Notes: generated by a model not told the origin, from the letters alone. Shown: positions 36,574 to 54,706, numbered from the stretch's first letter. The stretch: DNA of 64,000 bases from Patescibacteria group bacterium (GCA_026004395.1 BPJB01000001.1:327343-391342), one strand, 5' to 3'. Program-made: numbers and translations.

Positions 36574-36646
36574 TGACCCCACGGGAATTCGAATCCCGGT
36601 TTTCAGGATGAGAACCTGATGTCCTAGACCACTAGACGATGGGGCC
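36574..36646 (-). tRNA. tRNA-Glu (anticodon CTC)
   Basis: Minus-strand sequence GGCCCCATCGTCTAGTGGTCTAGGACATCAGGTTCTCATCCTGAAAACCGGGATTCGAATTCCCGTGGGGTCA folds as a cloverleaf. 7-bp acceptor stem (one G-U pair), anticodon loop TTCTCAT, T-loop TTCGAAT. No encoded CCA. Confidence 0.85.
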
Positions 36647-36796: not shown

Positions 36797-37555
36797 GTGA
36801 ATAGTATTTTCCTTTCGGTAATAATCCCCTGTTACAACGAGATGGCTAATTTACAAAAAGGAGTCCTCGATAAAGTCAGTCATTATCTTTTAAAGCAAAA
36901 ATATTCATCAGAAGTAATCATCGTAGATGATGGATCAACAGATGGAAGTATTCAGTTTATTGAAAAATTTGTCAAAGAGAACGCAAATTTCAAACTTATC
37001 AAGAATAGACATACAGGTAAAGCAGGAGCAGTTTCAACAGGAATGTTGAATGGCAAGGGTGAATATCTACTTTTTACTGATATGGATCAAGCCACCCCAA
37101 TAGAGGAAGTTGAAAAGTTGATTCCTTATTTTAGAGAAGGTTATGATATAGTGATTGGATCGAGAAAATCTAAACGTGAGGGTGCACCCTGGACACGTAT
37201 ATTAATGGCTCGTGGAATGATGTTTTTGCGAACACTGGTTGTTGGTCTTCATGGTATTGATGATACACAATGTGGTTTTAAGATGTTTAGGAATGATGTG
37301 TCAAAAAAACTCTTTGGCACACTGCGTAAACTTCATAATGGATTTAAAGAGGTTACAGGGTCTAGTGTTACAGCGGGATTTGATGTCGAACTTTTGTATC
37401 TAGGTCAAAAAATGGGATACAAAATAAAAGAAGTTCCTGTCAGCTGGCTTTATGTTGAGACTAGAAGAGTTAATCCTCTTAAAGATTCGTTTCAAGGATT
37501 TCTAGATCTTTTGATAATTAAACAAAACGCAATCAAAGGCAAATATAATATATGA
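36797..37555 (+). CDS. GT2 polyprenyl-phosphate sugar synthase (GtrB/Dpm1/ArnC-like)
   Basis: LSVIIPCYNEMANL...VIIVDDGSTDGS...GKAGAVSTGM...LLFTDMDQATP are signature motifs of the Dpm1/GtrB/ArnC clade. Overlaps the next gene (ATGA). Confidence 0.8.
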   Translation: MNSIFLSVIIPCYNEMANLQKGVLDKVSHYLLKQKYSSEVIIVDDGSTDGSIQFIEKFVKENANFKLIKNRHTGKAGAVSTGMLNGKGEYLLFTDMDQATPIEEVEKLIPYFREGYDIVIGSRKSKREGAPWTRILMARGMMFLRTLVVGLHGIDDTQCGFKMFRNDVSKKLFGTLRKLHNGFKEVTGSSVTAGFDVELLYLGQKMGYKIKEVPVSWLYVETRRVNPLKDSFQGFLDLLIIKQNAIKGKYNI

Positions 37556-38763
37556 ATTATAGATCTCAGACTGAGAAAAAAATTGTTCCAACAAAGCTTT
37601 TTTTTGTGCTCTATCTACTTTTAACTTTTTTACTCTTTTTGTACTCCTTTACCCAAGTTGATCTTGGACTAACATTGACTAGAACATCCGCTTTGACAGC
37701 TGTCCAGCATGCATTTCAATATATTGGTTATTTCAATAGACCGCTTTCCACAAGTCTTTATCTTGCAATCATTTTTTTTCTTTTTGGACTTTATATTTGG
37801 TCAATAAAATTAGTTATTAAAAAACAAATTACCAAAAAAATGGTTTGGTTGATTATCTTTTGCGTATCTCTTATATTAGTTTTTTCCTATAATGCTTTTT
37901 CACATGATATTTTTAACTATATTTTTGATGCAAGAATAGTTACTTATTACAGGGAAAATCCTTATTTTAAGAAAGCATTGGATTATCCCAATGATCCCAT
38001 GCTTGCTTTTATGCACTGGACACATAGGACATATCCTTATGGACCAATATGGCTTCTTCTAACTATTCCTCTATCATTTTTAGGATTTTCATTTTTTATC
38101 CCGACATTTCTTCTTTTTAAGATTATGAGCGGACTATCTTATCTTGGATCAGCGTACTTGATCTCCAAAATCACCAGGTACATCAATGAAAAATATGAAT
38201 TATTAAGTCTAACATTCTTTGCTCTTAATCCTCTTGTCCTGATTGAATCGCTTGTTTCAGGACATAATGACATAGTGATGATGTTTTTATTACTTGTCAG
38301 CATTTTATTTTTGGTTAATCAAAGATTTATTTGGTCATTTTTATTTCTTTTTCTGTCAATAGGTATAAAATATGCGACGGGATTCTTATTGCCTATCTAT
38401 CTTGCCATTTGGTTTTTTAAGAAAAAAGAAAGTCGAATAGTTTGGCAAAATATTTTTCTAATCTTTGTTATTGCTATGCTCTTCGCGCTTGTAGCAGCAA
38501 TATTGAGAACGCAGTTTCAACCATGGTATCTTTTATTTGTTATACCACTTGCATCCCTTGTTACACAAAAGAAATATATTCTTGTCCCAACAATCTTTAT
38601 TTCTTTTGGCGCATTATTAAATTACGCTCCATACTTATACTGGGGCAATTGGAATGATCCTGTACCAAAAATAATTTTTTTTATTAATCTATTGGCAGCA
38701 ATGCTAGCGTCTATTTCAATTTGTTGGCTTCTTGTAAGAAAGAAATTTAATTTTTCTTTGTAG
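37552..38763 (+). CDS. Polytopic membrane protein, putative GT-C-like glycosyltransferase (uncharacterised family)
   Basis: 403 aa with about 11 TM helices. A conserved acidic loop motif HDIFNYIFDARIV lies after TM3. Translationally coupled to the upstream GtrB-like GT2. Confidence 0.45.
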   Translation: MNYRSQTEKKIVPTKLFFVLYLLLTFLLFLYSFTQVDLGLTLTRTSALTAVQHAFQYIGYFNRPLSTSLYLAIIFFLFGLYIWSIKLVIKKQITKKMVWLIIFCVSLILVFSYNAFSHDIFNYIFDARIVTYYRENPYFKKALDYPNDPMLAFMHWTHRTYPYGPIWLLLTIPLSFLGFSFFIPTFLLFKIMSGLSYLGSAYLISKITRYINEKYELLSLTFFALNPLVLIESLVSGHNDIVMMFLLLVSILFLVNQRFIWSFLFLFLSIGIKYATGFLLPIYLAIWFFKKKESRIVWQNIFLIFVIAMLFALVAAILRTQFQPWYLLFVIPLASLVTQKKYILVPTIFISFGALLNYAPYLYWGNWNDPVPKIIFFINLLAAMLASISICWLLVRKKFNFSL

Positions 38764-40024
38764 AATCTTCTGTCCAAATGACATACAAATATGATTTAAT
38801 ATCTCCTTCGTGAAAAAGGATAGGATTACCACTGCGGACTCTTTCTGCTGCCTCTTGTTTTTGTTTATCTAATCCTCCGCCTGTTGTTTTGATCCAAAAT
38901 TCTTTTGTATTGTAGTAAGCATAGAATATCCAAAGAAAAACAAGAGGCAACAAAAGGTAAGGAAATTTCTTAAGTAATTTTTGTTGCAGATAAATAAGAA
39001 CAAAGATTACTAGTGGTGCTTGTAGGAGAAAATAATAATCAGAGATAGGACCTGCATAGATAGTGAAAAAAATAACTGGAATCAAAAACCACGGTAACAT
39101 AAGAAGCCCGATAAGTTTTTTAGTTTTATCTTTTTCAAATAAAAGAACAAAGCCAAAAAGAAATGGTATTACATATTGCAAAATTTTCCCCAGAGAAAAG
39201 AATATAATCAGCTTAAACTGCACAAAAGCATCTGTAAGTCTTAGCAGGAAAAAACGTAAATGAAATCCGTGCATATAATGTTTGATAAAGTCTGAGTATT
39301 TATAAAACTCTCCGTGTGAACTTTTGAGATCAAAGATTAGGGTAGGTATGAGGAAAAACGCAGCAATAGCAAAGCTTCCACATAAGAGGAGAAAATTTTT
39401 TATATTTTTTCCGAAAGGAAAAAGAGATAAGAGTATAATTGGAGGAAGAAATACGGCAGTGAAATGAAGATGAAAAAAAAGTCCTGTTAGAATTCCAAGA
39501 AGAATATACCAGTACTTTCCACCGCCTGTTCTAATACGAAAAAGAGTATAGAATAGCAAAATTGATGTAGCAGGCACCAGTGAAACATTCCAGGGAATCT
39601 GATTTTGTTTAATAATATAATTGCTTGTGCCATAGAGAAAGACTGCAAAGATAGCTGCTTTTTCTGAAAAAAGTTTTTTAGCTACTAGATAGAGAGTAAC
39701 AAATGTAATTATATTAACAACAATCGTAAAGTATATAGAAGCAACAGGATCCAGTTTTGTAAGCGCAAAAAAAGGTGCTAGAAGGTAAAAATACAATGGT
39801 CCAAGATGCATATTACCGATACCTGTTTTGGGTCCATCAAGTACGAGCATCCCTTTGAGAATGTCGCGTACTTTCCATGCGTCTCGAGCCTGATCCCATC
39901 CAAATGCTTTATCAGGATAGGATTCAATACCATAAAATCTAAGATACAGTCCCACTGTTAGGATAAATAAAAAAGCAAAAAAATATTTATGTGGAGAAAT
40001 TAGTTTAGAATAAAATTCACTCAT
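38747..40024 (-). CDS. GT-C-type (ArnT/PMT-like) polytopic membrane glycosyltransferase
   Basis: 425 aa with many TM helices. First loop contains WDQARD. Topology resembles the ArnT/PMT_2 family. Confidence 0.5.
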   Translation of the reverse strand: MSEFYSKLISPHKYFFAFLFILTVGLYLRFYGIESYPDKAFGWDQARDAWKVRDILKGMLVLDGPKTGIGNMHLGPLYFYLLAPFFALTKLDPVASIYFTIVVNIITFVTLYLVAKKLFSEKAAIFAVFLYGTSNYIIKQNQIPWNVSLVPATSILLFYTLFRIRTGGGKYWYILLGILTGLFFHLHFTAVFLPPIILLSLFPFGKNIKNFLLLCGSFAIAAFFLIPTLIFDLKSSHGEFYKYSDFIKHYMHGFHLRFFLLRLTDAFVQFKLIIFFSLGKILQYVIPFLFGFVLLFEKDKTKKLIGLLMLPWFLIPVIFFTIYAGPISDYYFLLQAPLVIFVLIYLQQKLLKKFPYLLLPLVFLWIFYAYYNTKEFWIKTTGGGLDKQKQEAAERVRSGNPILFHEGDIKSYLYVIWTEDSTKKN

Positions 40025-40055
40025 TAATGTGAGAATCTAGTATAATCTATAGTAT

Positions 40056-41577
40056 ATGCCAATACTTAAGAAAAGAAAAGTTGAGTTGTTTTTGGTAGTT
40101 TTCCTTTTTGCTCTTTACACTTTTTCACGACTTGGGGCTTTAACAAATATACCAATCTTTACTGATGAGGCAATTTATCTGAGATGGGCGCAGATCGCAG
40201 AATCTGATGCCAATTGGCGATTTATTTCACTTACCGATGGCAAACAGCCGCTTTTTATTTGGTTGACAATGCTAGCGATGAAAATTATTCCTGATCCCTT
40301 GATAGCGGGTAGAATGATCTCTGTATTGTCTGGACTTCTAACAGCTATTGGCTTATTTTTTCTTTCCCGAGAAATATTTCAAGAAAAATGGATAGGAATT
40401 ATTGCCGCAGGATTGTATGTTATTTATCCTTTTGCTCTTATTTATGATAGATTAGCTCTTTATGATTCTCTTGTTGGAACATTTGCAGTCTGGAGTCTTT
40501 ATGGTACAGTCTGTTTGGTGAGAGCTCTTCGTTTGGATGTTGCACTTTTGTTAGGTCTTGCTATAGGAGGTGCGGTATTGAATAAAACAAGCGGTTTTTT
40601 TCAATCTCTATCTTCTCCCTTTTGCATTACTTATTTTTGACTGGAAAAAGAAAAATCTAAGAGGTAGATTGATTCGTTTTATTCTCCTTTGTGGGGTAGT
40701 AGCATTAATGAGCTACGGAATGTATTCTATTTTACGTTTATCACCGTTTTTCTATATTATCGAGGAAAAGAATGCTGTGTTTGTCTACCCTTTTAGGGAT
40801 TGGATCCAACATCCTTTTGCGTATTTTTGGCAAAACTTAAGGGCACTTGTTGATTGGTTGGTAGCATATATGGGATTACCTTTAATATTATTAGCAGTAG
40901 GGTCTCTGTTTTTGAAAAAGACACTCATAAAAGAAAAGATTCTTTTAATAGTATGGTTTGTGGTGCCATTTATTGCTCTTGCATTGTTCGGAAAGACACT
41001 TTATCCTCGCTATATTTTTTTCATGACTCTTTCTCTTCTTCCACTTATAGCATATTCTATCTACATTCTTTATCGAAGACTAAAAGAAAAACCCTACCTT
41101 AGATTATTTTTTATTGTTTTAGCAATTTTTTATTCTTTTGTTTCGTCAATACTCATTCTTGCGGATTTCAAAAATGCGCCTATACCATCAGCAGACAAAT
41201 CACAATATCTTACAGGCTGGCCATCAGGTGTAGGTATTCCTGAGACAATTAATTTTTTTCAACAAAAAGCAAAAAAGGGTGAGATCTTTATTGGCACAGA
41301 AGGTACGTTTGGTCTTTTGCCATTTGCCTATGAATTATACTTTGTCAAGAATAAAAACATAACTGTTAAAGGATACTGGCCAATTGGGCCTGAGATTGAT
41401 CCAGAACTTGTAAAAATGAGTTTATCAAAACCTACCTATATGGTGTTTTATCAAGATTGCGTTCCTTGTGAAGCAAAAGGTATCGCACCTAGTACTTGGC
41501 CGCTTAAGAAAATTATGCAAATTCCAAAAGTTGAGAAAAATACTTATTTAACAGTTTATCAAGTACTACCACAATGA
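40056..41577 (+). pseudogene. GT-C (ArnT/PMT-like, DE-motif) membrane glycosyltransferase interrupted by a frameshift in a T7 homopolymer (pseudogene or sequencing error)
   Basis: ORF 40056-40640 contains TDEAIYLRW (DE motif). ORF 40669-41577 is in a different frame. The joined reading ...LNKTSGFF/FNLYLLPFALLIFDWKKKNLRGRLIRFILL... is continuous across the T-run at 40595-40601. Confidence 0.6.
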
Positions 41578-43217
41578 GAAAAGAATTAAAACAGGTCTTT
41601 CTTTGGATTTTTGTGCTTATTGTTCTTACTTTTCCTTTAATTCTTCCTTATTTCAGAGAAGGATATTTTCCCACACATGATGGCGAGTGGGCAGTTGTTC
41701 GACTTGCTGATATGTATCGAGAGATAAAAGACGGCCAAATTCCACCTAGATTCAGTGGAAATCTCAACTTTGGTTATGGTTATCCACTATTTAATTTTGC
41801 GTATCCTATGCCTTATTATCTGGGATTAGTATTCTTTTTATTACATATTGGCCTCGTCAATAGTATAAAAGTCCTTTTTGCGTTAAGTGTGCCTCTGAGT
41901 GCGATCATGATGTTTTTTGCATCAAGATCATTATGGGGAGGATCACTTGCAGGTCTGACAAGCGCTTTACTGTATGCATATTTACCTTATAGGATGGTTG
42001 ATCTTTATGTTAGAGGATCATTAGGAGAATCATTGGCATCTGTTCTATTCCCCACGATTTTTTATCTAATTACTGTTTTGTCATCTAGGAAATCTGTTTT
42101 TTTGGTTATTGGATTAGCAGCAGCATTTGGAACACTGATTTTAACACACAATATTATGGCTGTATTGTTTTCGATTATCATTAGTGCCTACGTTATATTT
42201 ATTTTCTTTACTTCTAAGAGCAAATATTGGAGGCAAATATTGTTGGGATTATTAGGAGGAATATTCCTTTCAGCATTTTTTTGGCTTCCCGCTCTTGTTG
42301 AAAAAAAGTTTGTTTTGCTTTCACAAATTCCGATTGCCGATCGTGATCTTTACTATGTTAATCCGTGGCAGCTTATTTTTTCTCCTTGGGGCTATGGAAC
42401 ACCTACCGAACAAAATTCATTTACTTATCAGTTAGGATTACCGCACATAATACTTTCGATTATAGGTTTTTTTCATATTTTGATTGATAAAAAAAAGGAT
42501 CAGAAACGTTTTTTAGGAATATTTTTGGCAGGGATGATTCTTGCTGCTATATTTATGCTTTTCCCCTTGTCTTCACCTCTTTGGGAAAATATTCCATTAA
42601 TTTCAGAAATTAATTATCCATGGACATTACTTTTCGTAATAGGATTTTTGATGAGTCTTCTTTCAGGAGTATTAATGAAGTATGGTAAAGTGATGAAAAT
42701 ATTTACAGTACTTTTTATTCTTTCAGCTATTGTTTTGGTATTACCTTTTGCAAAACCATCTGAATATGTTAATAGAGGGGATAGCTATTATTTTACCAAC
42801 GATGCGACTACAACTTCCTCCCGTGAGTTTATGCCTCTGTGGGTCAAACAGATGCCTCTTAATCGAGCAGCAGAAAAAGTACAAATTGTAAAAGGTAAAG
42901 GCAAAATTGAAGATATCAGAGCTACTTCTGATGAGATAACTTTTAGAGCTTCTTTATCTGAAAAAAGCATTATAAGATTGAATACAATTTTTTTCCCTAA
43001 TTGGAGATGGTATGTAGGTAAGAAACAAATTGCATTTAATTACGACAATCCTCAAGGTGTGATGGAAGCGACTTTTGATAAAGGCGAGCATGCAGTAAAA
43101 GTTGTATTTGAGAATACAACTGTGCGTACTTTTGCTAATTGGCTGTCATTGATGACATTTATTATTTTTGCTGTGATACTATCTCTTATATCTTGGAGAA
43201 AAGTATTAGATGAATAA
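41574..43217 (+). CDS. Polytopic membrane protein, paralog family A
   Basis: HDGEWAVVRLADMYREIKDGQIPPRF...GYGYPLFNFAYP. C-terminal FFPNWRWYVGKKQIAFNYDNPQGVMEATFDKGEHAVKVVFENTTVR. Confidence 0.6.
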   Translation: MRKELKQVFLWIFVLIVLTFPLILPYFREGYFPTHDGEWAVVRLADMYREIKDGQIPPRFSGNLNFGYGYPLFNFAYPMPYYLGLVFFLLHIGLVNSIKVLFALSVPLSAIMMFFASRSLWGGSLAGLTSALLYAYLPYRMVDLYVRGSLGESLASVLFPTIFYLITVLSSRKSVFLVIGLAAAFGTLILTHNIMAVLFSIIISAYVIFIFFTSKSKYWRQILLGLLGGIFLSAFFWLPALVEKKFVLLSQIPIADRDLYYVNPWQLIFSPWGYGTPTEQNSFTYQLGLPHIILSIIGFFHILIDKKKDQKRFLGIFLAGMILAAIFMLFPLSSPLWENIPLISEINYPWTLLFVIGFLMSLLSGVLMKYGKVMKIFTVLFILSAIVLVLPFAKPSEYVNRGDSYYFTNDATTTSSREFMPLWVKQMPLNRAAEKVQIVKGKGKIEDIRATSDEITFRASLSEKSIIRLNTIFFPNWRWYVGKKQIAFNYDNPQGVMEATFDKGEHAVKVVFENTTVRTFANWLSLMTFIIFAVILSLISWRKVLDE

Positions 43218-44892
43218 AATTTTTTTCTTTTTACTTTCTGTTTTTTCTTTTTTTTCTATTCTGCCGCTTTTGGGAAGAGAGTATTTCCCCATGCATGATG
43301 ATACTCAGGTTGCAAGAGTAATTGCTATGTCAACAGCTCTTCGTGATGGAATGTTTCCTGTTCGCTGGGTTGATATTTTAGGGTATGGTTATGGATATCC
43401 TATATTTAATTTTTACGCACCCTTAGCCTACTACGTTGGTGGCACTTTACATCTATTGGGTATTCCTCCAGTGGCTGCAACAAAAATTATGTTTGGCATC
43501 GGGATGCTTGCTGCCGGATTGTCAATGTATTTATTAGCAAAGGAGTTTTGGGGAGAATTAGGCGGATTACTTTCTGCATTATTGTATCTCTATGCTCCTT
43601 ATCATGCTGTTAATCTTTATGTAAGAGGTGCTATTGGAGAGTTGTGGGCTTACGGACTGATACCACTTGTATTTTTGGGTTTTTACAAACTTTTCAGCGC
43701 TATACAAAGTGAAGATAAAAGAAAAATTTGGTATTGGATTGGAATATCAGGATTTGCTTATGCAGCTTTGATTTTATCTCATAATTTGACAGCGTTCATT
43801 GTGACTCCTTTTTTAGTTATATTGATTATACTTTTTTGTATAGTCCTTAAGAGGCAACATATTAGCTTTGTTCATCTAATCTACGCTTTTTGTTTTGGAC
43901 TATTGTTCTGTGCTTTCTATTGGTTGCCGGCTATTCTTGAACTATCCTATACCAACGTTGGATCAATTTTGGGTGGAGGATCAAATCCCATAGACCATTT
44001 TGTCTGTTTATCTCAACTGTGGGCGAGTAACTGGGGATTTGCTGGCTCAGCACCGGGGTGTATTGATGGAATGTCTTTCATGATTGGGAAAATGCATATA
44101 ATTCTTGCGCTAGGTAGTTTTTTTGCCGCTCTTTTTTGGAAAAAAAGAGTCAAGAAAAATATATTTTTTATCCTTTTTATAGGTTTGGTACTTTCGGTTT
44201 TTCTCATGCTTAGTATTTCAAGATCGTTTTGGGAAGGCTTTCCTCTTATGATGTACATTCAATTTCCTTGGAGATATCTCACAATGGCTTCATTTTTTAG
44301 TTCATTATTGTCAGGAGGAATACTATTTATTTTATTAAGTTCTGTAAATCTAGATTATTTTAAAAAGGTAATTTTGGGAGTTTTTATTGGCCTGCTAATA
44401 ATTTTTATTTATGGGAAGTTTTTTGTGCCACAATATAAGATTAATGATATAACTCGCTATTCAAATATAGATTTTATACGATGGAATGTTTCCAAAATTT
44501 CTGATGAGTATTTGCCTTCTGATTTTAAAAAGCCAGAAAACATCTCAGATCTTCCTCAAAGCATTTTAGAGTTTATTAAAGGCTCTGGAAAAATTTATGT
44601 TGATAGAAAAACGACTACGCATCTTCTAGCATCCATAGTCGTTTCTAATGATGCAGTAATTAGAATACAAAGAGCCTACTTTCCAGCGTGGAGAATAGTA
44701 ATCAATGGAGTAGAAAAGACACCTATAATCAAAAATGGAGTATATTATCTCAATTTGCCTTCCGGAGATTATCGCTTGGAGATGAGTTTTGTTCAAACTC
44801 CGATTGAGAGAGTTGCGAATAGCCTTACACTTCTTGGTATTTTTCTTTTTATTGCTGGTATAATATATGCTCATCGAAAGGTGTTAAAATGA
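43210..44892 (+). CDS. Polytopic membrane protein, paralog family A
   Basis: HDDTQVARVIAMSTALRDGMFPVRW...GYGYPIFNFYAP. C-terminal YFPAWRIVINGVEKTP...GDYRLEMSFVQTPIER. Overlaps the previous gene by 8 nt. Confidence 0.6.
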   Translation: MNKIFFFLLSVFSFFSILPLLGREYFPMHDDTQVARVIAMSTALRDGMFPVRWVDILGYGYGYPIFNFYAPLAYYVGGTLHLLGIPPVAATKIMFGIGMLAAGLSMYLLAKEFWGELGGLLSALLYLYAPYHAVNLYVRGAIGELWAYGLIPLVFLGFYKLFSAIQSEDKRKIWYWIGISGFAYAALILSHNLTAFIVTPFLVILIILFCIVLKRQHISFVHLIYAFCFGLLFCAFYWLPAILELSYTNVGSILGGGSNPIDHFVCLSQLWASNWGFAGSAPGCIDGMSFMIGKMHIILALGSFFAALFWKKRVKKNIFFILFIGLVLSVFLMLSISRSFWEGFPLMMYIQFPWRYLTMASFFSSLLSGGILFILLSSVNLDYFKKVILGVFIGLLIIFIYGKFFVPQYKINDITRYSNIDFIRWNVSKISDEYLPSDFKKPENISDLPQSILEFIKGSGKIYVDRKTTTHLLASIVVSNDAVIRIQRAYFPAWRIVINGVEKTPIIKNGVYYLNLPSGDYRLEMSFVQTPIERVANSLTLLGIFLFIAGIIYAHRKVLK

Positions 44893-45602
44893 ATAAAAAA
44901 TTACCTGAATTATCAATCTTTTTCCCATTTTGGAATGAGGAAAAAAATATTGAGCAAGTTGTCACCAATGCTATCGCAATTGCTCCAAGAATTGCTAAGA
45001 AATGGGAGATTATTATTGTTGATGATGGTTCATCGGATAGGACTTGGGAAAAATCTCGGGAGATAGAATCGCAATACTCCAATATTCGTATTGTTCATCA
45101 TCATGTCAACCGCGGTTATGGTGCTGCATTAAAATCAGGATTTGAGCACAGCCAATATAACTACATAGTATTTACTGATGGAGATTTGCAATTCGATTTT
45201 TCAGAAGTGACCAAATTTATTGAAGTGATTGCAGATGCGGATATTGTTATCGGCTATCGAAAAAAAAGACAGGATAACCTAATAAGAAATATTCTGATGA
45301 CATTGTTAAAGATATGGGACTTTATTTTTTTCCGTTTTTATTTCAAAGATATAGATTGCGGTTTTAAGATGTTCCGCCGTGAAGCGATTGAGGCATTAAT
45401 GCCTCTTCGATCAGAAGGAGCAATGATAACAACTGAAATACTGGCAAAAGCAAAAGCGAAGAAGATGAAAATTAAGCAGGTTGGAGTATCTCATTTTCCA
45501 CGCAAACATGGTCAGTCAAGCGGTGGCAATATTCCAGTTATTATTCGAGCGGTACTTGAAACCTTTATTCTCTATTGGGATATTAAAAATAGGCGGTTTT
45601 AA
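44889..45602 (+). CDS. GT2 polyprenyl-phosphate sugar synthase (GtrB/Dpm1/ArnC-like)
   Basis: LSIFFPFWNEEKNI...IIVDDGSSDRT...NRGYGAALKSG...VFTDGDLQFD. Overlaps the upstream stop (ATGA). Confidence 0.8.
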   Translation: MNKKLPELSIFFPFWNEEKNIEQVVTNAIAIAPRIAKKWEIIIVDDGSSDRTWEKSREIESQYSNIRIVHHHVNRGYGAALKSGFEHSQYNYIVFTDGDLQFDFSEVTKFIEVIADADIVIGYRKKRQDNLIRNILMTLLKIWDFIFFRFYFKDIDCGFKMFRREAIEALMPLRSEGAMITTEILAKAKAKKMKIKQVGVSHFPRKHGQSSGGNIPVIIRAVLETFILYWDIKNRRF

Positions 45603-45604
45603 TT

Positions 45605-47056
45605 ATGCAAGAAATTGATATTGCCACAATTACAAGGCGTTCCATTCATGGCGTTTTCGCTTTGGTCTCCAGGACGTTTCTGATACAGATAGTTATGCAG
45701 TTGGTGAGTTTTCTGCTTACGATCTATCTTCTTCCTGAGGAATATGGAATGTTTTATATTGTGTCAGCAGCAATTGCTTTTCTTGCTTATTTTTCTGATA
45801 TTGGATTGGCAGCTGCTTTAATTCAGAAAAAGGAAGAGTTAACAAAAGACGATTTAAGAACTACATTTACAATACAGCAAGCACTTGTATTAAGTGTTTC
45901 AATTATTGCTCTTATTTTTACCGATGCTGTGGGTAAATTTTATAACCTCAATAATGAGGGAAAGCTCCTTTATCAGGTACTTATCTTCTCCTTTGTTTTA
46001 TCATCGCTTAAGACAATACCTTCCATACTTCTTGAGAGAAAACTTCTTTTTCAAAAATTAGTCATTCCTGAGATTGTTGAGACAGTTGCGTTCAGTGTGA
46101 CGGTTTTAATTTTGGCAATACAAAACTTCGGAATAGCAAGTTTTACCTATGCAGTTTTCCTGCGTGGTTTACTAGGATTACTTACAATGTATCTTATTGC
46201 TCCGTGGAGACCGCAGATAGGTTTTTCACTAAATGTGGCGAAGCGTTTACTTGCATTCGGTGTTCCATTTCAGGCAAATAGCATCCTAGCTTTGTTGAAA
46301 GATCAACTTCTTGTAATTTATCTAGGTAAAGCGTTATCACTTACGCAAGTGGGATATATTGGGGTAGCCCAAAAATTAGCATACACACCCCTTAGACTTT
46401 TTATGGATAATATTATTCGTATAACCTTTCCATCTTTTTCTCGATTGGCTGAGACTAAATATCTTGGTAAAGCCATAGAAAAAACACTATTTGCAATTAG
46501 TGCATTTATTTTTCCTGCATCTGCTGGCATGGTGATTCTTATGCCTTATTTTATTCGCGTTTTTCCCAAATATGAAAAATGGGAGCCTGTTCTTCTTTCA
46601 CTAACATTTTTTTCTCTAAACGCAATTCTCTCTAGCCTATCAACGCCTTTGACCAATGCTCTCAATGCCATCGGAAAGATCAAGATAACATTGCATCTTA
46701 TGATTTTTTGGACACTAGCGACATGGATTCTGATACCCATTTTTATTGGAATTTTTGGATTTGATGGAGTGTCTATTGCCTCAGCTTTTATTTCAGTAAG
46801 CGTTGTTGCAGTGGTTTTTCTTGCGAAACAATATATTCCTTTCAGTATCCTTTCCGTAATTTATCCGCCATTTTTAGCAACAATTATTATGGCCATCTCT
46901 CTTTTTTTTATTTCAACGTATATTATCACTTCCCTGCAAACTTTGATTCTTGCTATGCTAGTGGGAGGAGGAATATATTTATTGACCCTTTTTCTGATAG
47001 CAAAGAAGCAAATTCTATCAGATTTAGAATTAATTAGAGCTAATTTAAAAAGGTAA
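45605..47056 (+). CDS. Wzx/MOP-superfamily polysaccharide/oligosaccharide flippase
   Basis: 483 aa with about 14 TM helices, typical polysaccharide-biosynthesis-protein composition. Lies inside the glycosyltransferase cluster. Confidence 0.65.
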   Translation: MQEIDIATITRRSIHGVFALVSRTFLIQIVMQLVSFLLTIYLLPEEYGMFYIVSAAIAFLAYFSDIGLAAALIQKKEELTKDDLRTTFTIQQALVLSVSIIALIFTDAVGKFYNLNNEGKLLYQVLIFSFVLSSLKTIPSILLERKLLFQKLVIPEIVETVAFSVTVLILAIQNFGIASFTYAVFLRGLLGLLTMYLIAPWRPQIGFSLNVAKRLLAFGVPFQANSILALLKDQLLVIYLGKALSLTQVGYIGVAQKLAYTPLRLFMDNIIRITFPSFSRLAETKYLGKAIEKTLFAISAFIFPASAGMVILMPYFIRVFPKYEKWEPVLLSLTFFSLNAILSSLSTPLTNALNAIGKIKITLHLMIFWTLATWILIPIFIGIFGFDGVSIASAFISVSVVAVVFLAKQYIPFSILSVIYPPFLATIIMAISLFFISTYIITSLQTLILAMLVGGGIYLLTLFLIAKKQILSDLELIRANLKR

Positions 47057-47057
47057 T

Positions 47058-47978
47058 ATGTCTAAATTATCCGTTGTAATTTCTGTACACAATGGCGAGA
47101 GAGTTTTGGAAGAGTGTTTAAGATCAGTTGTCTGGGCAGATGAGATAGTAGTAATAGATCATGATTCTGATGATGCGACAGCTTCAATTGCAAAGAAATA
47201 TACGAAAGTAGTTGTGTCAAGACCCAATGATCCTAAGAATATTGATTTGCAAAAAAATTATGGATTTGAAAAAGCTACCAATGAGTGGATTTTAAGTCTT
47301 GACGCTGATGAGCGTGTTTCAGCAGATTTGGCTCAGGAAATTAAGTCTGTTATTAACAATGCAGTATGCGAAGCATATGAAATTCCTCGCAAAAATATAA
47401 TTTTTGGTAAATGGATTCAACATTCGTTCTGGTGGCCTGATTACCAAGTCCGTCTTTTTAAAAAAGGTAAAGGAAAATATGTAGAAAAAGGCGTTCATAA
47501 GCAGCTTAAAGTGGATGGTCCAGTTGGCAAACTGCAAAACCCTCTTATCCATGAAAATTATCAGAGTATTAGCCAATATATACAAAAAATGGATGTTTAT
47601 ACTGAAAATGAAGCCTCATCACTGGTACAACAAGGTACGCATTTTAATTGGAGAGATGCGCTGCGTATGCCTGTTAGGGATTTTCTTAAAACCTTTTTCT
47701 TGCAGGAAGGATATAAAGATGGTTTTCATGGTTTAGTCTTAAGCACTTTGCAAGGTTTTTATACATTTTTGGTTATTATCAAAGTATGGGAGAAAAATGG
47801 TTTTAAGGAAGAATACAATTCTGCATTTCTAAAAACTATCTTAAAAGAATGGAGGAAACTTCAAAATGAGATTTTTTACTGGATACTTTCAACATTGATC
47901 ATATCTTCAAGAAATCCCTTTAAAAAATTTTTCTATCGTATTAAGAGAAAAATAGTGATGATGCGACTTAGAGATTAA
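47058..47978 (+). CDS. GT2 glycosyltransferase (LPS-core beta-glycosyltransferase-like) with C-terminal extension
   Basis: LSVVISVHNGERVLEECLRS...EIVVIDHDSDDAT...LSLDADERV (DxD). Paralog of ORF 53662-54411. Confidence 0.75.
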   Translation: MSKLSVVISVHNGERVLEECLRSVVWADEIVVIDHDSDDATASIAKKYTKVVVSRPNDPKNIDLQKNYGFEKATNEWILSLDADERVSADLAQEIKSVINNAVCEAYEIPRKNIIFGKWIQHSFWWPDYQVRLFKKGKGKYVEKGVHKQLKVDGPVGKLQNPLIHENYQSISQYIQKMDVYTENEASSLVQQGTHFNWRDALRMPVRDFLKTFFLQEGYKDGFHGLVLSTLQGFYTFLVIIKVWEKNGFKEEYNSAFLKTILKEWRKLQNEIFYWILSTLIISSRNPFKKFFYRIKRKIVMMRLRD

Positions 47979-48584
47979 TTAATTTTCAAAACGTGTAAGA
48001 TTTAACCAATATTTATTTTCAGTAATTCCTCTATCTAATCCATTGAAATCAAAAAAACCAACAGTTTTTTTCAGCTCCTTTTGCGATTTTAAAAATATCA
48101 ATTTATATAAATTATTTTCTCGATACAAAACTGTATCATTATCGCGGTAAATTACTGTTTTTGAATGTAGTTCTTCACTCTTAATAATTTTTGACAACTC
48201 ATGTTCTGCAACAAGAAAATCTATACTGACAAGTTTGGGAGATTTATAGATTAAAAAAGCTTTATCTGTTGGGGATAAAGAAATAGGAATATCAATGATG
48301 GCAAGAGTATTTGCTACTAAATCAGAAGGTATACCTGTTTTGGAAAATATACCTGATCCAGGAGAATAAAAATCGCGAAACTTCCAGAATTTTTGGGTAT
48401 TAAGATAATTGGTATCTTTTATATCAGTTAAAAATTCTTTTCTTAATTTTTCTCTGGCAAATGGTAATGTTAGAGTTGATATTGCTGGAACAAAAATAAG
48501 CGAAGAACAGACAAGAGTGAAGATAATAAAGATATAAATAATTAAATGAGAATAATGAGGATGATCTTTTTGTTTTTTATTCAT
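47979..48584 (-). CDS. Hypothetical N-terminally anchored extracytoplasmic protein
   Basis: 201 aa. Single N-terminal TM helix then a soluble domain. The only minus-strand gene within the plus-strand cluster 36797-53669. Confidence 0.4.
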   Translation of the reverse strand: MNKKQKDHPHYSHLIIYIFIIFTLVCSSLIFVPAISTLTLPFAREKLRKEFLTDIKDTNYLNTQKFWKFRDFYSPGSGIFSKTGIPSDLVANTLAIIDIPISLSPTDKAFLIYKSPKLVSIDFLVAEHELSKIIKSEELHSKTVIYRDNDTVLYRENNLYKLIFLKSQKELKKTVGFFDFNGLDRGITENKYWLNLTRFEN

Positions 48585-48606
48585 TCTTCTTCTATACTAT
48601 CAATAC

Positions 48607-50295
48607 ATGCAAAGCAAAAAAGAACTTTTTTTTATTTTTTGTATTTTTTTATCTTCAATTATTTTTGTCTTTGATCTGTTCCTGCATCAGGGTTTGCCGC
48701 AAACATTCGATAATCTTGCTCATGCTACTTCAATTACTCAATTTTTTTTGGCTTTGAAAGATGGCGATTTTCCTGTACGCTGGTCTGATGGCATCGGTAA
48801 TTATGGTCTTCCTCTTCCCATTGTAGCACATCAAGTTCCTAATTATCTGGGAGCGTTTCTGATGTATTTTTTAAATGATCCTGAGATAGTATTAAAGATA
48901 CTTTACTTCTTATCTATATTTCTATCAGGATTTTTCTTTTATCTATTTCTTAAATATTATTTCCCCCCGTTGTATGCTTTTTGTGGTACATTTTTTTATA
49001 TTTTTTCCTCTTACAAAATATTCAATACCTATGTCAGAGGTGCTCTACCTGAGTTATTCTCAGCAATTTGGTTGCCCATAATTCTTCTGGGTATACTGCT
49101 TTTTGTGAAAGAGAAGCAATTTAAAGGATTGTTATTAATCACAATGAGTGTTGCCAACCTTGCTTTGACTCATCCAATGATGCTTCTTATCTACTCATTT
49201 ATTTATTTGCCTTTTTTGTTTTGGATGCTAATATCTTCGCGAGATAAAAAAAATAATTTTTTACATTTATTGGTTCAAAGAAGTACTATTGCATGTATTG
49301 GAGGGATCATGTTAGCCCTTTTAATCGCAGGATATTATCTCATCCCTCTTGTTTTAGAGATAAAGTATTTTTATCTTGGTAATTCTCAACCGTTTACCCC
49401 TGGCAATTATCTTACTTGGGATAGCTTTTTTGGAATGCAATGGCCCTACTTTACCGAAAAAGATATTGTAACTCGTGGACATGTTGTAAATGTTGGTATT
49501 TTGGAAACATTAGTTTTTATTATGGGAATATTTTTATTCTTTCATTCAATAAAAAATAAAAAAAACAATGATCAACTCGGTATTTTATTTTTTGCCATCC
49601 TTAATGGACTGTTAGTGATTATTTTGATGTTGCCTTTTGCTGAAAATATTTTTTACTCTGTTAAAATATTGGGAAGTGTTCAGTTTCAGTGGAGATTTCT
49701 TTCAGCCTTTAATTTTTTCCCTCCAATTATTCTCGCATATGCTCTGACAAGATTAAATAAACAGTTTTTTGTAATTTTGGTAATTCTTACTATTGCATTT
49801 TTCTCTTTTCCGCAACTTTATGGGAAGAATTATATGCAAGTAGACAAAAAAAATTATTTTTTTACTCCTATCAATGTACATTCTGTACTCTTGAATACAA
49901 TCTGGTCAGGCAGGACAGAAGATTATCCTCTAAAAAAACAAAAAGCAGAAGTAATAGAAGGAGTTGGAAAAATAAAAGAAAAAAAGGAATCGAACTCTCA
50001 AAGAACATATTTAGTTGATGCTCAGACACCATTGAGGATGGTAGATTATACTTTTTATTTCCCCGGATGGAATGTATATATTGACGGCAAAAAAACCCCA
50101 ATTGAATTTCAAGACCCATCTTTTAGAGGAGTTATAACTTATCAGGTACCTTACGGAGAGCACTTGATTCATATTAAGTTTGAAAATACAAAAATTCGTC
50201 TCTTAGGAAATAGTCTTTCACTTTTGGGAATTGGATTGTTTGTGCTTGCTATTTTTTGTCAGAAAAGTGTTAAGAAATTTCTTAAGGTTTGTTAA
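48607..50295 (+). CDS. Polytopic membrane protein, paralog family A
   Basis: N-terminal LAHATSITQFFLALKDGDFPVRW. C-terminal YFPGWNVYIDGKKTPIEFQDPSFRGVITYQVPYGEHLIHIKFENTKIR, which closely matches the C-terminus of ORF 33063. Confidence 0.6.
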   Translation: MQSKKELFFIFCIFLSSIIFVFDLFLHQGLPQTFDNLAHATSITQFFLALKDGDFPVRWSDGIGNYGLPLPIVAHQVPNYLGAFLMYFLNDPEIVLKILYFLSIFLSGFFFYLFLKYYFPPLYAFCGTFFYIFSSYKIFNTYVRGALPELFSAIWLPIILLGILLFVKEKQFKGLLLITMSVANLALTHPMMLLIYSFIYLPFLFWMLISSRDKKNNFLHLLVQRSTIACIGGIMLALLIAGYYLIPLVLEIKYFYLGNSQPFTPGNYLTWDSFFGMQWPYFTEKDIVTRGHVVNVGILETLVFIMGIFLFFHSIKNKKNNDQLGILFFAILNGLLVIILMLPFAENIFYSVKILGSVQFQWRFLSAFNFFPPIILAYALTRLNKQFFVILVILTIAFFSFPQLYGKNYMQVDKKNYFFTPINVHSVLLNTIWSGRTEDYPLKKQKAEVIEGVGKIKEKKESNSQRTYLVDAQTPLRMVDYTFYFPGWNVYIDGKKTPIEFQDPSFRGVITYQVPYGEHLIHIKFENTKIRLLGNSLSLLGIGLFVLAIFCQKSVKKFLKVC

Positions 50296-50348
50296 TTTTA
50301 AAGTTATGTGGCTGAACATTTATTTTCTTGTTATAATAAAACCTCATA

Positions 50349-51065
50349 ATGAAATTATCAATCATCATTCCTGTATTTAATGAAGAAAAAACAATTGCGG
50401 CTGTAATCAAGAAAGTTTTAGCAGTTCAACTGGACAATGCTGACAAAGAAATAATAGTCGTTGATGATTGTTCTTCTGATAGGACAGGAGAGATATTAAA
50501 CAATCTTCGTCAAATTTATAAAGATCTTAAGATTTATACACATAAAAAAAATAAGGGTAAAGGTGCAGCTTTAAGAACAGGCTTCGCTTATGCGACCGGT
50601 GATTATTGTATTATTCAGGATGCTGATCTGGAATATGATCCAATGCAGATTGGATCTCTTTTCAAACCGATTGTAGAAGGTGAAGCCCAAGTAGTTTATG
50701 GAACACGTTTAAAAAGATTGCCTCACTTGCGGGGTGAGGAATCAACGCCGCGTTTTCTTCTCCATTATTTTGGCAATCGATTCTTAAGTTTGATAACCAG
50801 TATGCTCTATTTTCAATGGATTACTGACATGGAGACGTGTTATAAAATTTTCCCTCGTAAGTTTATTCAGAGAGTTAATTTAAAAGGAGAAGGTTTTGAA
50901 TTTGAACCTGAGATTACTGCAAAATTGATTAAGCATGGATATAAAATAAAAGAGATTCCTATTACTACCACACCTCGAGGTTATAACGAGGGTAAAAAAC
51001 TTCAAACATTTCCTGAGGGAATAAAAGCTTTTTGGACTTTGATTAAATATCGTTTTGTTGATTGA
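50349..51065 (+). CDS. GT2 polyprenyl-phosphate sugar synthase (GtrB/Dpm1/ArnC-like)
   Basis: LSIIIPVFNEEKTI...IIVVDDCSSDRTG...NKGKGAALRTG...IIQDADLEYDP. Followed 10 nt later by a family-B GT-C gene. Confidence 0.8.
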   Translation: MKLSIIIPVFNEEKTIAAVIKKVLAVQLDNADKEIIVVDDCSSDRTGEILNNLRQIYKDLKIYTHKKNKGKGAALRTGFAYATGDYCIIQDADLEYDPMQIGSLFKPIVEGEAQVVYGTRLKRLPHLRGEESTPRFLLHYFGNRFLSLITSMLYFQWITDMETCYKIFPRKFIQRVNLKGEGFEFEPEITAKLIKHGYKIKEIPITTTPRGYNEGKKLQTFPEGIKAFWTLIKYRFVD

Positions 51066-51074
51066 CAAAAGGTT

Positions 51075-52739
51075 ATGTTAAATAAATTGATACGTAATAC
51101 CGCACTTATCCTCGTTTTTCTTACTTTTGTTGGTGGATTATTGAGAGTCTATAAAATAGGAGAAATTCCTGTGGGATTTCACGCGGATGAAGCCTACTTT
51201 GGCTATAACGCATACTCTCTATTGAGAACAGGAAGAGATATTACAGGACATTTTATACCTATTCACCTGGAATCATTTCTTTATAGTCCGGGGGGGTATT
51301 CGTATCTGATTATTCCATTTCTCGTTTTTTTTGATTTAAGTCCAGTTGCAGTTAGACTTCCAGCTGCAATAATTGGTACAGCAACAATAATTCTGACATT
51401 TTTTTTAGTACGCATGATTTTTTCTCAAGAAAAATACAGTGTGCTGGTCGCATTAATCACCACTTTTCTTCTCACTATTAGTCCTTGGCATATTAATCTC
51501 TCTCGTGCTTCAGCTGAAAATGTCATTGTAGTATTCCTTATAATTCTAAGTGTGTTTTTGTATTTGAAATGGGTTGAGAATCAACGATTTTTTATTCTTT
51601 TGTTTTCCTTTATTTTTTTTGCAAGCACGTATCTTTTTTATCAAGCTCCGCGTGCTTTCCTCCCTCTTTTTATTCCTTTTTTAGTATTGTTCTTTTCTCG
51701 TCAATTGAAGCCAAAGAAATATTTTTTGATAGGCATTCTATATTTATTTTTCATAGTCTTGCCGCTAGTCATTATTGTCACCTCTGATACCCTATCCTAT
51801 AGATTAAGGATGTTGTCCGTATTTAGTTATCCGAAAACTCAAGCATTAATTGATGAGGCAATAGTAGAGGATGGTTTATCATCTCAGCCTGTTATCTTGA
51901 CACGCGTATTTCATAACAAGATTGTTGGTTATACTTCAGAGATATTTGATACTTATATGCAACATTTATCTTACGGTTTTTTATTTAAAGATGAAGGTTT
52001 GCCAGCGCGTTATCGTGTGCCAAATATGGGATTACTTTATTTATTTGAGCTTCCTTTAATTGTTGTTGGATTGTACTCTATAGTACGATTGCGCAGTAGG
52101 GGTGGATTGTTATGTATTGTGTGGGTTCTTTTGGGATTTGTTGGGTCTGCTTTAACATATGATGATGTTCCCAATCTTCAGAGGACTCTTCTTGTTTTGC
52201 CTGCACTTCAAGTTGTGGGTGGATTTGGCGCTGTGACACTTTTTAAAAATTTACCTTCAAAGGTGATTCCGATTGTGGTTTTAGTGAGCATTATCATAGT
52301 GCTTTATTTTGTTTCCTATTATCTTCATCAATATTTTATCCATCAGATTATTCATAAGCCAATTTATCGTCAGGAGGGGTATAAAGAGTTGGTCAGAGTG
52401 GTAAATAAATTGCTCCCTCAATATCAATATGCAATGATAACAACTCGTCAGGCATCTCCTCTAATTTTTTTTCTTTTTTATTCTCAGTATGATCCAGCAA
52501 AATTCCAACAAGAGATTAAAAAAGAAAAGCACAATTTCCTTATTGAGGATTTTGGAAAAGTAAGCATAGATAAATATAGATTTTTTACAGATGCGTGTTT
52601 TGATAAAGACAAATTAAAAGAATCGATTTTATATGTTGATCTTGGATCTTGCGATGTTCCTTATTCTCAAGTACATGTTCTAAAAGAAATTAAAAGAGGT
52701 GATGCAAGTATAGTATTCAGGGTGTATGATAAAAAATAA
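51075..52739 (+). CDS. GT-C glycosyltransferase, PMT/ArnT-like (GT39/83), paralog family B
   Basis: First-loop motif GFHADEAYFGYNAYSLLRTGRD...HLESF, the DE motif of PMT_2. 554 aa with a C-terminal soluble domain. Confidence 0.7.
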   Translation: MLNKLIRNTALILVFLTFVGGLLRVYKIGEIPVGFHADEAYFGYNAYSLLRTGRDITGHFIPIHLESFLYSPGGYSYLIIPFLVFFDLSPVAVRLPAAIIGTATIILTFFLVRMIFSQEKYSVLVALITTFLLTISPWHINLSRASAENVIVVFLIILSVFLYLKWVENQRFFILLFSFIFFASTYLFYQAPRAFLPLFIPFLVLFFSRQLKPKKYFLIGILYLFFIVLPLVIIVTSDTLSYRLRMLSVFSYPKTQALIDEAIVEDGLSSQPVILTRVFHNKIVGYTSEIFDTYMQHLSYGFLFKDEGLPARYRVPNMGLLYLFELPLIVVGLYSIVRLRSRGGLLCIVWVLLGFVGSALTYDDVPNLQRTLLVLPALQVVGGFGAVTLFKNLPSKVIPIVVLVSIIIVLYFVSYYLHQYFIHQIIHKPIYRQEGYKELVRVVNKLLPQYQYAMITTRQASPLIFFLFYSQYDPAKFQQEIKKEKHNFLIEDFGKVSIDKYRFFTDACFDKDKLKESILYVDLGSCDVPYSQVHVLKEIKRGDASIVFRVYDKK

Positions 52740-52745
52740 GATGAA

Positions 52746-53669
52746 GTGATTATGGAAAAAGTGATAATTTCAATTATTGATTATAATGGACGTGACGATA
52801 CAATTGCCTGTCTTCGCTCTATTGAAAAATTAGTTACGGAAAATTTCTTCTTTGAGGTAGTTGTCATTGATAATTATCCTCAAGGGTTCTTTTCTTTGGG
52901 AGATGAGAAGTTTGATATTCCAATTACGATAATTAAGACTCCCAAAGCTTTGGGATTTGCTGGAGGACAGAATAAAGGCATAGAGTATGCTTTGGAACAG
53001 AACGCAGATTATGTTCTTGTATTAAATAATGATACGCTTGTAGATAAAAATCTTTTGCGTGAGTTAGTGAGAGCTAGCAGGGAGGATAAAAAACGCGGTG
53101 CAATTGTTCCTAAAATTTATTTTGCAAAAGGTCATGAATTCCACAAAGATCGTTATACAAAAGATGAATTAGGACGGATCATCTGGTATGCAGGTGGCAG
53201 AATGGACTGGAACAATATTTATGGTATTCATATTGGAGTTGATGAAGTAGATCATGGACAGTATGACCATGAATCAGAAACAGAGCTTTTGACAGGATGT
53301 TGCGTACTATTAACAAAAGATGTTTTGAATAAAGTAAAAGGATTTGATAACAGATATTTTTTGTATTATGAAGATGCTGACCTTAATGAAAGGATAAAGA
53401 AAGCTGGTTTTCTCATTTGGTATAGGCCAAGTGCACTACTTTGGCATGTAAATGCAGCATCAACAGGAGGATCAGGATCTCCAACTCAGGATTATTATAT
53501 TAGCCGCAATAGACTCTTATTTGGTATGAAGTATGCTAGTTTAAGGACAAAAATCGCATTGATAAGAGAAAGTTTGCGTATTCTTAGATCAGGGAGGGAA
53601 TGGCAAAAAAAGGGAGTAATTGATTTTTATCTTAGACGGCTTAAAAATGGGAGGCTTTATAATGATTAA
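52746..53669 (+). CDS. GT2 glycosyltransferase, RfbF/WbbL (rhamnosyltransferase)-like
   Basis: VISIIDYNGRDDT...VIDNYPQG...LVLNNDTLV...GCCVLLTKDVLNKVKGFDNRYFLYYEDADL is the typical GT2_RfbF-like pattern. Confidence 0.75.
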   Translation: MIMEKVIISIIDYNGRDDTIACLRSIEKLVTENFFFEVVVIDNYPQGFFSLGDEKFDIPITIIKTPKALGFAGGQNKGIEYALEQNADYVLVLNNDTLVDKNLLRELVRASREDKKRGAIVPKIYFAKGHEFHKDRYTKDELGRIIWYAGGRMDWNNIYGIHIGVDEVDHGQYDHESETELLTGCCVLLTKDVLNKVKGFDNRYFLYYEDADLNERIKKAGFLIWYRPSALLWHVNAASTGGSGSPTQDYYISRNRLLFGMKYASLRTKIALIRESLRILRSGREWQKKGVIDFYLRRLKNGRLYND

Positions 53670-54651: not shown

Positions 54652-54706
54652 TTTCTATATCTTAACATACATTTTGATAAATAGCAAAAATTGCTACAAT
54701 AAAAGA

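Follow-up and report, generated by a model that had tools for sequence, protein, structure and literature searches.

Our analysis concerns a 64,000-nucleotide stretch of DNA from a Patescibacteria group bacterium (GCA_026004395.1, BPJB01000001.1:327343-391342; hereafter the window), and in particular positions 36,797 to 52,739, where three short family 2 glycosyltransferases (GT2a, GT2b, and GT2c) are encoded among polytopic membrane glycosyltransferases of the GT-C type (Table 1). Our results suggest, with a probability of about 0.6, that this region makes up the core of a surface-glycosylation island in a Levybacteria-like bacterium of the Candidate Phyla Radiation (CPR). The island would be a variant of the systems that pair a polyprenyl-phosphate-sugar synthase with a GT-C enzyme, one that lacks GtrA, is crowded with GT-Cs, and uses synthases without transmembrane (TM) helices.

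In the mechanism that we propose, the three synthases would act at the membrane surface and move a sugar, probably a different one in each case, from a nucleotide sugar onto polyprenyl phosphate. The lipid-linked sugars would then be flipped, and the Wzx/MOP-family protein encoded at 45605 is the only candidate for this step in the window. Outside the membrane, 13-14 GT-Cs (GT87-like, PMT/ArnT-like family B, family A, and YfhO) would take the sugars from their lipid donors and would decorate surface proteins or wall polymers.

Class and catalytic features of the short GT2s

The sequences of the three GT2s place them in the polyisoprenyl-phosphate glycosyltransferases (PI-GTs), the class of GtrB, ArnC, and dolichyl-phosphate-mannose synthase (DPMS). 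They match no named enzyme of this class, and their activities are predicted ones. An earlier reading of the window from its sequence alone had called them GtrB/Dpm1-like, which motifs, alignments, and structural matches bear out. All three contain the GT2 catalytic domain of GT-A fold (PF00535, E 8e-29 to 5e-38), and the best solved relatives of each, in a sequence search against the Protein Data Bank (PDB), are GtrB (5EKP), the DPMS of P. furiosus (PfDPMS, 5MLZ), and ArnC. PI-GTs ranked above all other GT2 structures in the sequence searches with all three and in the fold search with GT2a, whose AF2 model (pLDDT, the predicted local confidence score, of 80) had GtrB, ArnC, or DPMS as each of its best 25 Foldseek matches in the PDB (E 1e-14 to 1e-11). 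GT2b aligns to ArnC over residues 6-211 (E 6e-19), and also to PfDPMS, while GT2c aligns over its full length with PfDPMS residues 1-227, including the equivalents of R117, D154, R202, E206, and K208.

Functional residues have been defined in GtrB and PfDPMS: the DxD motif, an arginine that contacts the acceptor phosphate (GtrB R122, PfDPMS R117), an aspartate (GtrB D157), an arginine of the acceptor loop (GtrB R200, PfDPMS R202), and two amphipathic interface helices (PMC4728340, PMC5526996). To check them we used HMMER for pairwise alignments and MAFFT for one that included about 40 orthologues from each group. N-E, the DxD, the first arginine (R123), and the aspartate (D156) are kept in GT2a, GT2b, and GT2c and are invariant across the three groups. 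The DxD (GtrB D94/D96, PfDPMS D89/D91) reads DMD in GT2a, DGD in GT2b, and DAD in GT2c, each invariant within its group. In the same order, the acceptor-phosphate arginine lies in IGSR, IGYR, and YGTR, and the equivalent of GtrB D157 in IDDTQCGF, KDIDCGF, and TDMETCY. The acceptor-loop arginine aligns in GT2b (FPRKHG) and GT2c (TPRGY..GK). GT2a is ambiguous here: arginines occur in its loop (YVETRRV), where gaps break the alignment and confidence in the model is low. Both interface helices align in the GT2s, and in the GT2a model they span residues 131-145 and 231-246, with the low pLDDT expected of membrane-surface helices. GT2a and GT2b have an equivalent of PfDPMS R131, which is uncertain in GT2c, and the position of PfDPMS H94 is occupied by T, F, or Y.

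None of the three GT2s has a TM or other hydrophobic segment, and their chains stop a few residues past the second interface helix (IFH2). The number of TM segments per chain is two in GtrB, four in PfDPMS, one in yeast DPMS, and none in human DPM1, and the catalytic domains of the actinobacterial synthase Ppm1 are not known to have TM helices. When PfDPMS is truncated (delta230-352), about 80% of it remains membrane-bound and its activity equals that of the wild type (PMC5526996). TM-less and ending after IFH2, the GT2s thus match this truncated enzyme and human DPM1, and since the former is active and the latter naturally TM-less, the lack of TM helices is not disqualifying. It would also be found if the three were ordinary soluble GT2s whose acceptor is a sugar or a protein rather than a lipid phosphate, an explanation that could further account for the generic PF00535 being the only model above its curated cut-off. 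Yet we consider it very improbable, because the PI-GT features are kept (the arginine of juxtamembrane/interface helix 1, JM1/IFH1, that of the acceptor loop in GT2b and GT2c, and the C-terminal amphipathic helix), because PI-GTs outrank other GT2 structures in sequence and fold searches, and because a TM-less DPMS is active.

The GT-C partners

The membrane proteins encoded next to the GT2s are GT-C enzymes, as had been proposed. For GT87, PMT_2, PMT, and YfhO this is based on Pfam models above their cut-offs; family A matches PTPS_related, which belongs to the GT-C clan (CL0111), and is the family whose fold was tested with a model. The AlphaFold model of A3, the family A protein encoded at 43210, has a pLDDT of 89.7 and a predicted TM-score (pTM) of 0.91, and its best 23 PDB matches are all GT-Cs (AglB, AftD, STT3, Pmt4, ArnT, PglB, AftA, and Emb). 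One or more conserved acidic residues in the first extracytoplasmic loop are present in all three partner families. After the first TM helix (TM1) we found D37 in at least 95% of the orthologues of the GT87-like protein (37552), an invariant D30 in A3 with H29 and D31 in at least 90%, and H36, D38, and E39 in the family B protein at 51075 (at least 90%). The GT87-like protein also matches the MptA model (E 1e-15), with a score of 57.7 against a cut-off of 439.

Conserved linkage of synthases and GT-Cs

The sequence-only reading had described three modules, each with a GT2 gene coupled or adjacent to a GT-C gene. The gene positions and junctions were correctly described: short GT2 genes start at 36797, 44889, and 50349; the first shares an ATGA overlap with the 37552 gene; the second shares one with the 43210 gene and is followed, 2 nt past its stop, by the 45605 flippase gene; and the third is separated by a 9-nt spacer from the family B gene at 51075. 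The ATGA overlaps are a general trait of this compact cluster: overlaps or gaps of at most 15 nt occur at 13 of its 16 same-strand junctions, and -4 overlaps are also found between two GT-C genes and between the GT4 and YfhO genes. When we shuffled the order of the 22 cluster genes (33-63 kb; 13 of them GT-C-like), all three short GT2s fell beside a GT-C in 60% of the shuffles (P=0.60). Adjacency within the window is not beyond chance, because 13 of the 22 genes encode GT-Cs and tight junctions are usual, and its test therefore needs other genomes. There, a signal above chance was found for the first pair and for the block around GT2b, and weakly for the third pair.

GT2a heads a genuine, fixed operon with the GT87-like gene and a PMT-type gene of about 505 codons (PMT505). 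In 50 metagenomic loci having a GT2a orthologue (at least 55% identity) with room downstream, the GT87-like orthologue came directly after it in 49, with a modal gap of -4 (22 loci), and the PMT-type gene was third in 38/41. The genes upstream of GT2a were polytopic in only 9/201 cases. In the window, a frameshift close to a T7 run (~40594-40600) breaks PMT505 into open reading frames (ORFs) at 40056-40640 and 40669-41577. We rejected the idea that these are separate genes, since orthologues that are intact match first frame 3 and afterwards frame 1; the gene could be a pseudogene, or the break could come from slippage or from an error in the assembly. The window operon is also interrupted, between the GT87-like gene and PMT505, by the minus-strand PMT_2 gene at 38747, at whose position relatives mostly have nothing, or an unrelated plus-strand gene of ~370-400 codons.

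GT2b belongs to a second fixed unit, A-A-GT2b-Wzx-GT2. The order (PMT)-A-A-GT2b-Wzx-GT2 was found in 8/8 independent genomes, and one locus (L173) reproduces the entire string from GT2a to GT2x. Wzx always lies directly 3' of GT2b, a GT2x-type gene follows Wzx in all GT2b loci, and A2 is conserved upstream of A3-GT2b.

GT2c is part of a looser unit that travels with GT4-YfhO and has no fixed GT-C downstream. The gene after GT2c was polytopic in 44/57 species genomes, against a background of 52% in the same loci (binomial 7e-5, relatedness being ignored), and a true orthologue of the 51075 gene follows it in the closest relatives only. Its stable companions lie on the upstream side: YfhO, with an orthologue two to three genes away in 49/63 loci, and GT4, with one in 43/63. 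The usual order in relatives is GT4-YfhO-GT2(315 aa)-GT2c; in the window, GT4-YfhO sit 3.6-7 kb downstream of GT2c, YfhO is directly followed by a family B gene, and the 315-aa GT2 has no orthologue. In relatives (L006-L071, e.g. L009, L015, and L016), this GT2 is encoded between YfhO and GT2c, is translationally coupled to GT2c, and has one or two C-terminal TM helices. We rejected it as the missing partner of CsbB/GtrB type, because NTD, WVSGGSGAFR, and YWEDxDLSYR are motifs of ordinary GT2s. In 37 GT2c loci, a DUF5652 gene lies upstream of GT4-YfhO at a position that does not vary, ~4.4 kb upstream of GT2c.

The interpretation in terms of three modules is therefore partly supported. Two of them are real conserved units, larger than first described, and the third is a cluster-level association of GT2c with YfhO rather than with the 51075 gene. 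The related idea that each synthase feeds a dedicated set of GT-Cs is not supported for GT2c, which has no dedicated neighbour, whose downstream family changes between genomes, and whose stable companions, GT4-YfhO, lie beyond the region in which the modules had been drawn.

Divergence of the synthases and their possible donors

GT2a, GT2b, and GT2c are far from near-identical, with pairwise identities of 25-32%. Each has an orthologue group kept at 55-70% identity in dozens to hundreds of Patescibacteria sequences (Levybacteria/Microgenomates), and GT2c has over 100 Patescibacteria homologues at 60% identity or more. Within a group the residues after the DxD are invariant, but each group has its own: DMDQATP in GT2a, DGDxQFDF in GT2b, and DADLEYxP in GT2c. 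In PfDPMS, D89 and H94 touch mannose hydroxyls (PMC5526996), so that differences around the DxD make it plausible that the three GT2s use different sugars. We rejected a reading of the donor from the residues of PfDPMS that contact guanine and mannose: Asp stands at the D39 equivalent in each of the three GT2s, and this position does not discriminate because Asp is also found in GtrB and ArnC, which use UDP-sugars. Some Levybacteria (L011, L042, and L044) encode an additional short Dpm1-like GT2 paralogue (238-283 aa, 25-27% identity to GT2b/GT2c), convergently oriented with GT2c, which indicates that the number of lipid-sugar synthases varies by lineage.

The three GT2s might instead supply the same lipid sugar, or only two (e.g. 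polyprenyl-P-mannose or polyprenyl-P-glucose), their adjacency to GT-Cs following from GT-C density and not from dedicated modules. The result of the shuffles, the generic tight junctions, the changing partner of GT2c, and the ratio of 13-14 GT-Cs to three synthases speak for this view. We still find it quite unlikely. The GT2a-GT87-like pair recurs in nearly all loci, at the cluster boundary, with non-membrane genes upstream, and the synthases form three old groups, separately kept across Microgenomates and differing at invariant residues flanking the DxD.

The flippase step and an archaeal-style alternative

Of the steps in the mechanism, flipping is the least secure. The 45605 protein scores below the cut-offs of the MOP flippase models, and it could flip an oligosaccharide instead of lipid-linked monosaccharides. 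It would do so in an archaeal-style pathway, in which an AglJ-like GT2b (or GT2c) starts a glycan on polyprenyl monophosphate. Cytoplasmic extension of this glycan would fall to GT2x, GT2y, GT2z, and GT4 and its flipping to Wzx, and a family A GT-C, with its fold resembling oligosaccharyltransferases (OSTs), would transfer it en bloc to a protein or polymer, the other GT-Cs adding single sugars. This pathway seems to us rather unlikely. The retention of the whole A-A-GT2b-Wzx-GT2-GT2 block in 8/8 genomes would suit it, as would the finding that the 64-kb window encodes no initiating phosphoglycosyltransferase, the AglJ model being the best NCBIfam match of GT2c, and the OSTs AglB and STT3 being the best fold matches of the family A model. 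There is also a precedent in Haloferax, where the N-glycan is built on dolichol monophosphate from AglJ (PMC3871713). However, the AglJ score is far under its cut-off (118.6 against 325), the fold scores of AglB, AftD, Pmt4, and ArnT are similar and do not discriminate between types of donor, no WWDxG-type OST motif occurs among the invariant residues of family A, and an initiating enzyme could sit elsewhere in the ~1.08-Mb genome. A wider form of the idea is that CPR bacteria of Microgenomates type have archaeal-like glycosylation, with DPM1/AglJ-like initiation on polyprenyl monophosphate without a phosphoglycosyltransferase, extension by GT2/GT4 enzymes, flipping by Wzx, en-bloc transfer by family A, and two more lipid-monosaccharide donors with which about 10 GT-Cs would complete the glycan outside the cell; we regard it as unlikely.

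Several observations also weigh against the reading that we prefer, that of a GtrA-less system of lipid-sugar synthases and GT-Cs. The GT2s reach no equivalog cut-off in NCBIfam among ArnC, PgfS, AglJ, PpgS, and the halobacterial Dol-P-hexose transferase: the best scores are 68 for PgfS (the best match of GT2a; cut-off 500), 80.7 for ArnC (cut-off 529), and that of AglJ given above. S135 of PfDPMS, conserved in bona fide DPMS, is Ala or absent in them, and none has the full set that marks such enzymes (R117, R131, S135, and DADLQH). The donor sugar is not assignable from sequence. No flippase of GtrA/SMR type is encoded among the ORFs scanned in the 64 kb of the window. Wzx proteins usually flip undecaprenyl-diphosphate-linked oligosaccharides, and the four ordinary cytoplasmic glycosyltransferases (GT2x, GT2y, GT2z, and GT4) suggest that an oligosaccharide is assembled as well. 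The product of the gene downstream of GT2c is of family B in 16 genomes, PMT2-like in nine, without a hit in eight, YfhO in seven, family A in four, and non-polytopic in 13. Finally, the loci that we compared are phylogenetically related and their counts are not independent.

Relation to known systems

The resemblance to the three-component Gtr systems, proposed in the sequence-only reading, holds for part of the architecture. As in the GtrA/GtrB/GtrC systems for O-antigen glucosylation from Shigella and Salmonella phages (GtrB structure, 5EKP), a GT2 gene for a polyprenyl-P-sugar synthase lies beside that of a GT-C acting outside the membrane, and the DxD, R122, and D157 of GtrB have their equivalents in the window. 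This linkage is conserved for GT2a-GT87-like and A-GT2b, and for GT2c at the level of the cluster only. In contrast with Gtr, the window has no GtrA, has three synthases and 13-14 GT-Cs instead of one each, and its synthases lack the two TM helices and the C-terminal hairpin of GtrB, which brings their architecture closer to DPM1 or truncated DPMS. The end-to-end match of GT2c with the catalytic domain, IFH1, A-loop, and IFH2 of PfDPMS and the TM-less state shared with DPM1 of the human DPM1/DPM2/DPM3 complex point in the same direction. Unlike in DPMS, the S135 equivalent is not conserved and DADLQH reads DADLEY, DGDLQF, or DMDQAT; unlike in the human complex, no homologue of DPM2/3 was identified. 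The size and topology of DUF5652 recall DPM2 and DPM3, the anchors of TM-less human DPM1; this analogy is pure speculation. Speculatively, DUF5652 or a translationally coupled GT-C partner might tether the TM-less synthases, as DPM3 does human DPM1.

Other systems share different traits with the island. In actinobacteria, the polyprenyl-P-mannose synthase Ppm1 supplies several GT-Cs of the PMT and GT87 families (PMC5882110). The succession of GT2a, GT87-like, and PMT-like genes recalls this system (Ppm1 with Pmt, MptA/MptB, and PimE), from which the window differs by the low score of its MptA-like protein. A GT2 synthase is associated with a YfhO-type GT-C in CsbB/GtcA/YfhO, in GtlA/GtlB for lipoteichoic acid glycosylation, and in the streptococcal PgfS/PgfM1/PgfM2 (PMC7389260, PMC12041528). 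The association of GT2c with YfhO and the PgfS match of GT2a are reminiscent of these, but the scores are far under the equivalog cut-offs and there is no GtcA/GtrA. A protein of the MOP superfamily has been implicated in the flipping of polyprenyl-P-monosaccharides in Haloferax (AglR) and in Citrobacter (a MATE protein) (PMC3871713, PMC11127046). In Haloferax (AglD/AglR/AglS, AglJ) and in the three-component system of Citrobacter, a MOP protein thus accompanies a synthase and a GT-C, as in A-GT2b-Wzx, whereas the window is from a CPR bacterium and has a Wzx that may flip an oligosaccharide.

Organization of the window

The window has a GC content of ~34%. Housekeeping genes (RtcB, MutS/MutL, enolase, Lon, CorA, and others) occupy its first 33 kb, and a single glycosylation island, at least 30 kb long, runs from 33,063 to the window end. 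The product of GT2b is 100% identical to KatS3mg089_0376, a protein of a Patescibacteria metagenome-assembled genome (MAG), and the nearest relatives at species level are Levybacteria/Levyibacteriota MAGs. The GT-C set of the island comprises four family A genes (PTPS_related), six family B genes of PMT_2/PMT type (five full-length and one split) plus the minus-strand PMT_2 gene at 38747, which is more distant, one GT87-like gene, and one YfhO gene. The remainder includes the three short GT2s, four ordinary glycosyltransferases, and one Wzx. The ORF at 63090 is probably a 14th GT-C gene and passes the window end, which means that the island extends beyond it.

Table 1. Genes of the glycosylation island, in window coordinates
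Feature	Position	Strand	Remarks
A1, family A GT-C	33063-34688	+	upstream end of island
B-like GT-C	34675-36426	-	upstream end of island
tRNA-Glu(CTC)	36573-36646	-	within the 370-nt gap delimiting the GT2a operon on its upstream side
GT2a, 252 aa, GTG start, DMD	36797-37555	+	PF00535 E 7.8e-29; heads conserved operon
GT87/MptA-like GT-C, 403 aa	37552-38763	+	PF09594 27.4 bits, cut-off 25
PMT_2-type GT-C, 425 aa	38747-40024	-	PF13231 E 2.2e-10; lineage-specific here
PMT505, PMT-type GT-C, ~505 aa, frameshifted	40056-41577	+	PMT/PMT_2 matches on N-terminal half
A2, family A GT-C, 547 aa	41574-43217	+	weak PTPS_related match; 30% identity to A3
A3, family A GT-C, 560 aa	43210-44892	+	PF10131 33.7 bits, cut-off 26.4
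GT2b, 237 aa, DGD	44889-45602	+	PF00535 E 5.7e-31
Wzx/MOP-family flippase, 483 aa	45605-47056	+	PF13440 E 1.2e-42
GT2x, ordinary cytoplasmic GT2, non-PI-GT type, 306 aa	47058-47978	+	PF00535 E 1.2e-16
201-aa protein, one N-terminal TM helix	47979-48584	-	no Pfam/NCBIfam match
A4, family A GT-C, 562 aa	48607-50295	+	weak PTPS_related and DUF6541 matches; 24-26% identity to A1-A3
GT2c, 238 aa, DADLEY	50349-51065	+	PF00535 E 4.8e-38
Family B (PMT_2/ArnT-like) GT-C, 554 aa	51075-52739	+	PF13231 32.1 bits, cut-off 26.1
GT2y, ordinary cytoplasmic GT2	52746-53669	+	PF00535
GT2z, ordinary cytoplasmic GT2	53620-54411	+	PF00535
DUF5652, 79 aa, two TM helices	54412-54651	-	divergent from GT4
GT4	54632-55780	+	PF00534
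YfhO-type GT-C	55777-58068	+	PF09586
Tandem family B GT-C, first	58072-59745	+	PMT/PMT_2; 34-36% mutual identity in the tandem
Tandem family B GT-C, second	59750-61423	+	PMT/PMT_2; as above
Tandem family B GT-C, third	61423-63027	+	PMT/PMT_2; as above
Polytopic GT-C-like ORF, start approximate	63090-64000	+	TM helices, HEEYPDEFDN after TM1 (frame translation)

GT2y and GT2z have rhamnosyltransferase-like and other NCBIfam matches, all sub-threshold. Their listed ORFs share 50 nt; in an identical Logan contig (L001), the gene calls (6572-7489 and 7467-8231) use later starts for both and overlap by 23 nt, so that the TTG start listed for GT2z is probably too early. Homologues of the 201-aa protein encoded at 47979, which could have an accessory role or serve as an acceptor, recur beside A4-type GT-C genes in relatives. 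At 25851-28286 (plus strand), a few kb 5' of the island, a GH18 gene (chitinase/endo-beta-N-acetylglucosaminidase-like) comes directly before a gene for an S11 D-Ala-D-Ala carboxypeptidase. A scan for promoters and terminators between 36 and 55.9 kb gave no information, with 75 sites where 83 were expected and 13 where 9.8 were.

Significance

We found no mention of such clusters in the searchable CPR/Patescibacteria literature on GT-C, mannosyltransferase, and YfhO. The GT2s of the window, if their class is as their sequences indicate, are natural cases of bacterial polyprenyl-phosphate glycosyltransferases entirely devoid of TM helices. Heterologous reconstitution would have compact and clearly delimited targets in the GT2a-GT87-like-PMT operon and in the A-A-GT2b-Wzx block. 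CPR bacteria have genomes of about 1 Mb and rely on host-cell contact. Here, about 30 kb, or ~3% of a ~1.08-Mb genome if the record with the identical protein is its source, are spent on 13-14 GT-Cs and three synthases. The conservation of the core gene strings over Levybacteria and other Microgenomates points to an elaborate surface glycan that is selectively maintained.

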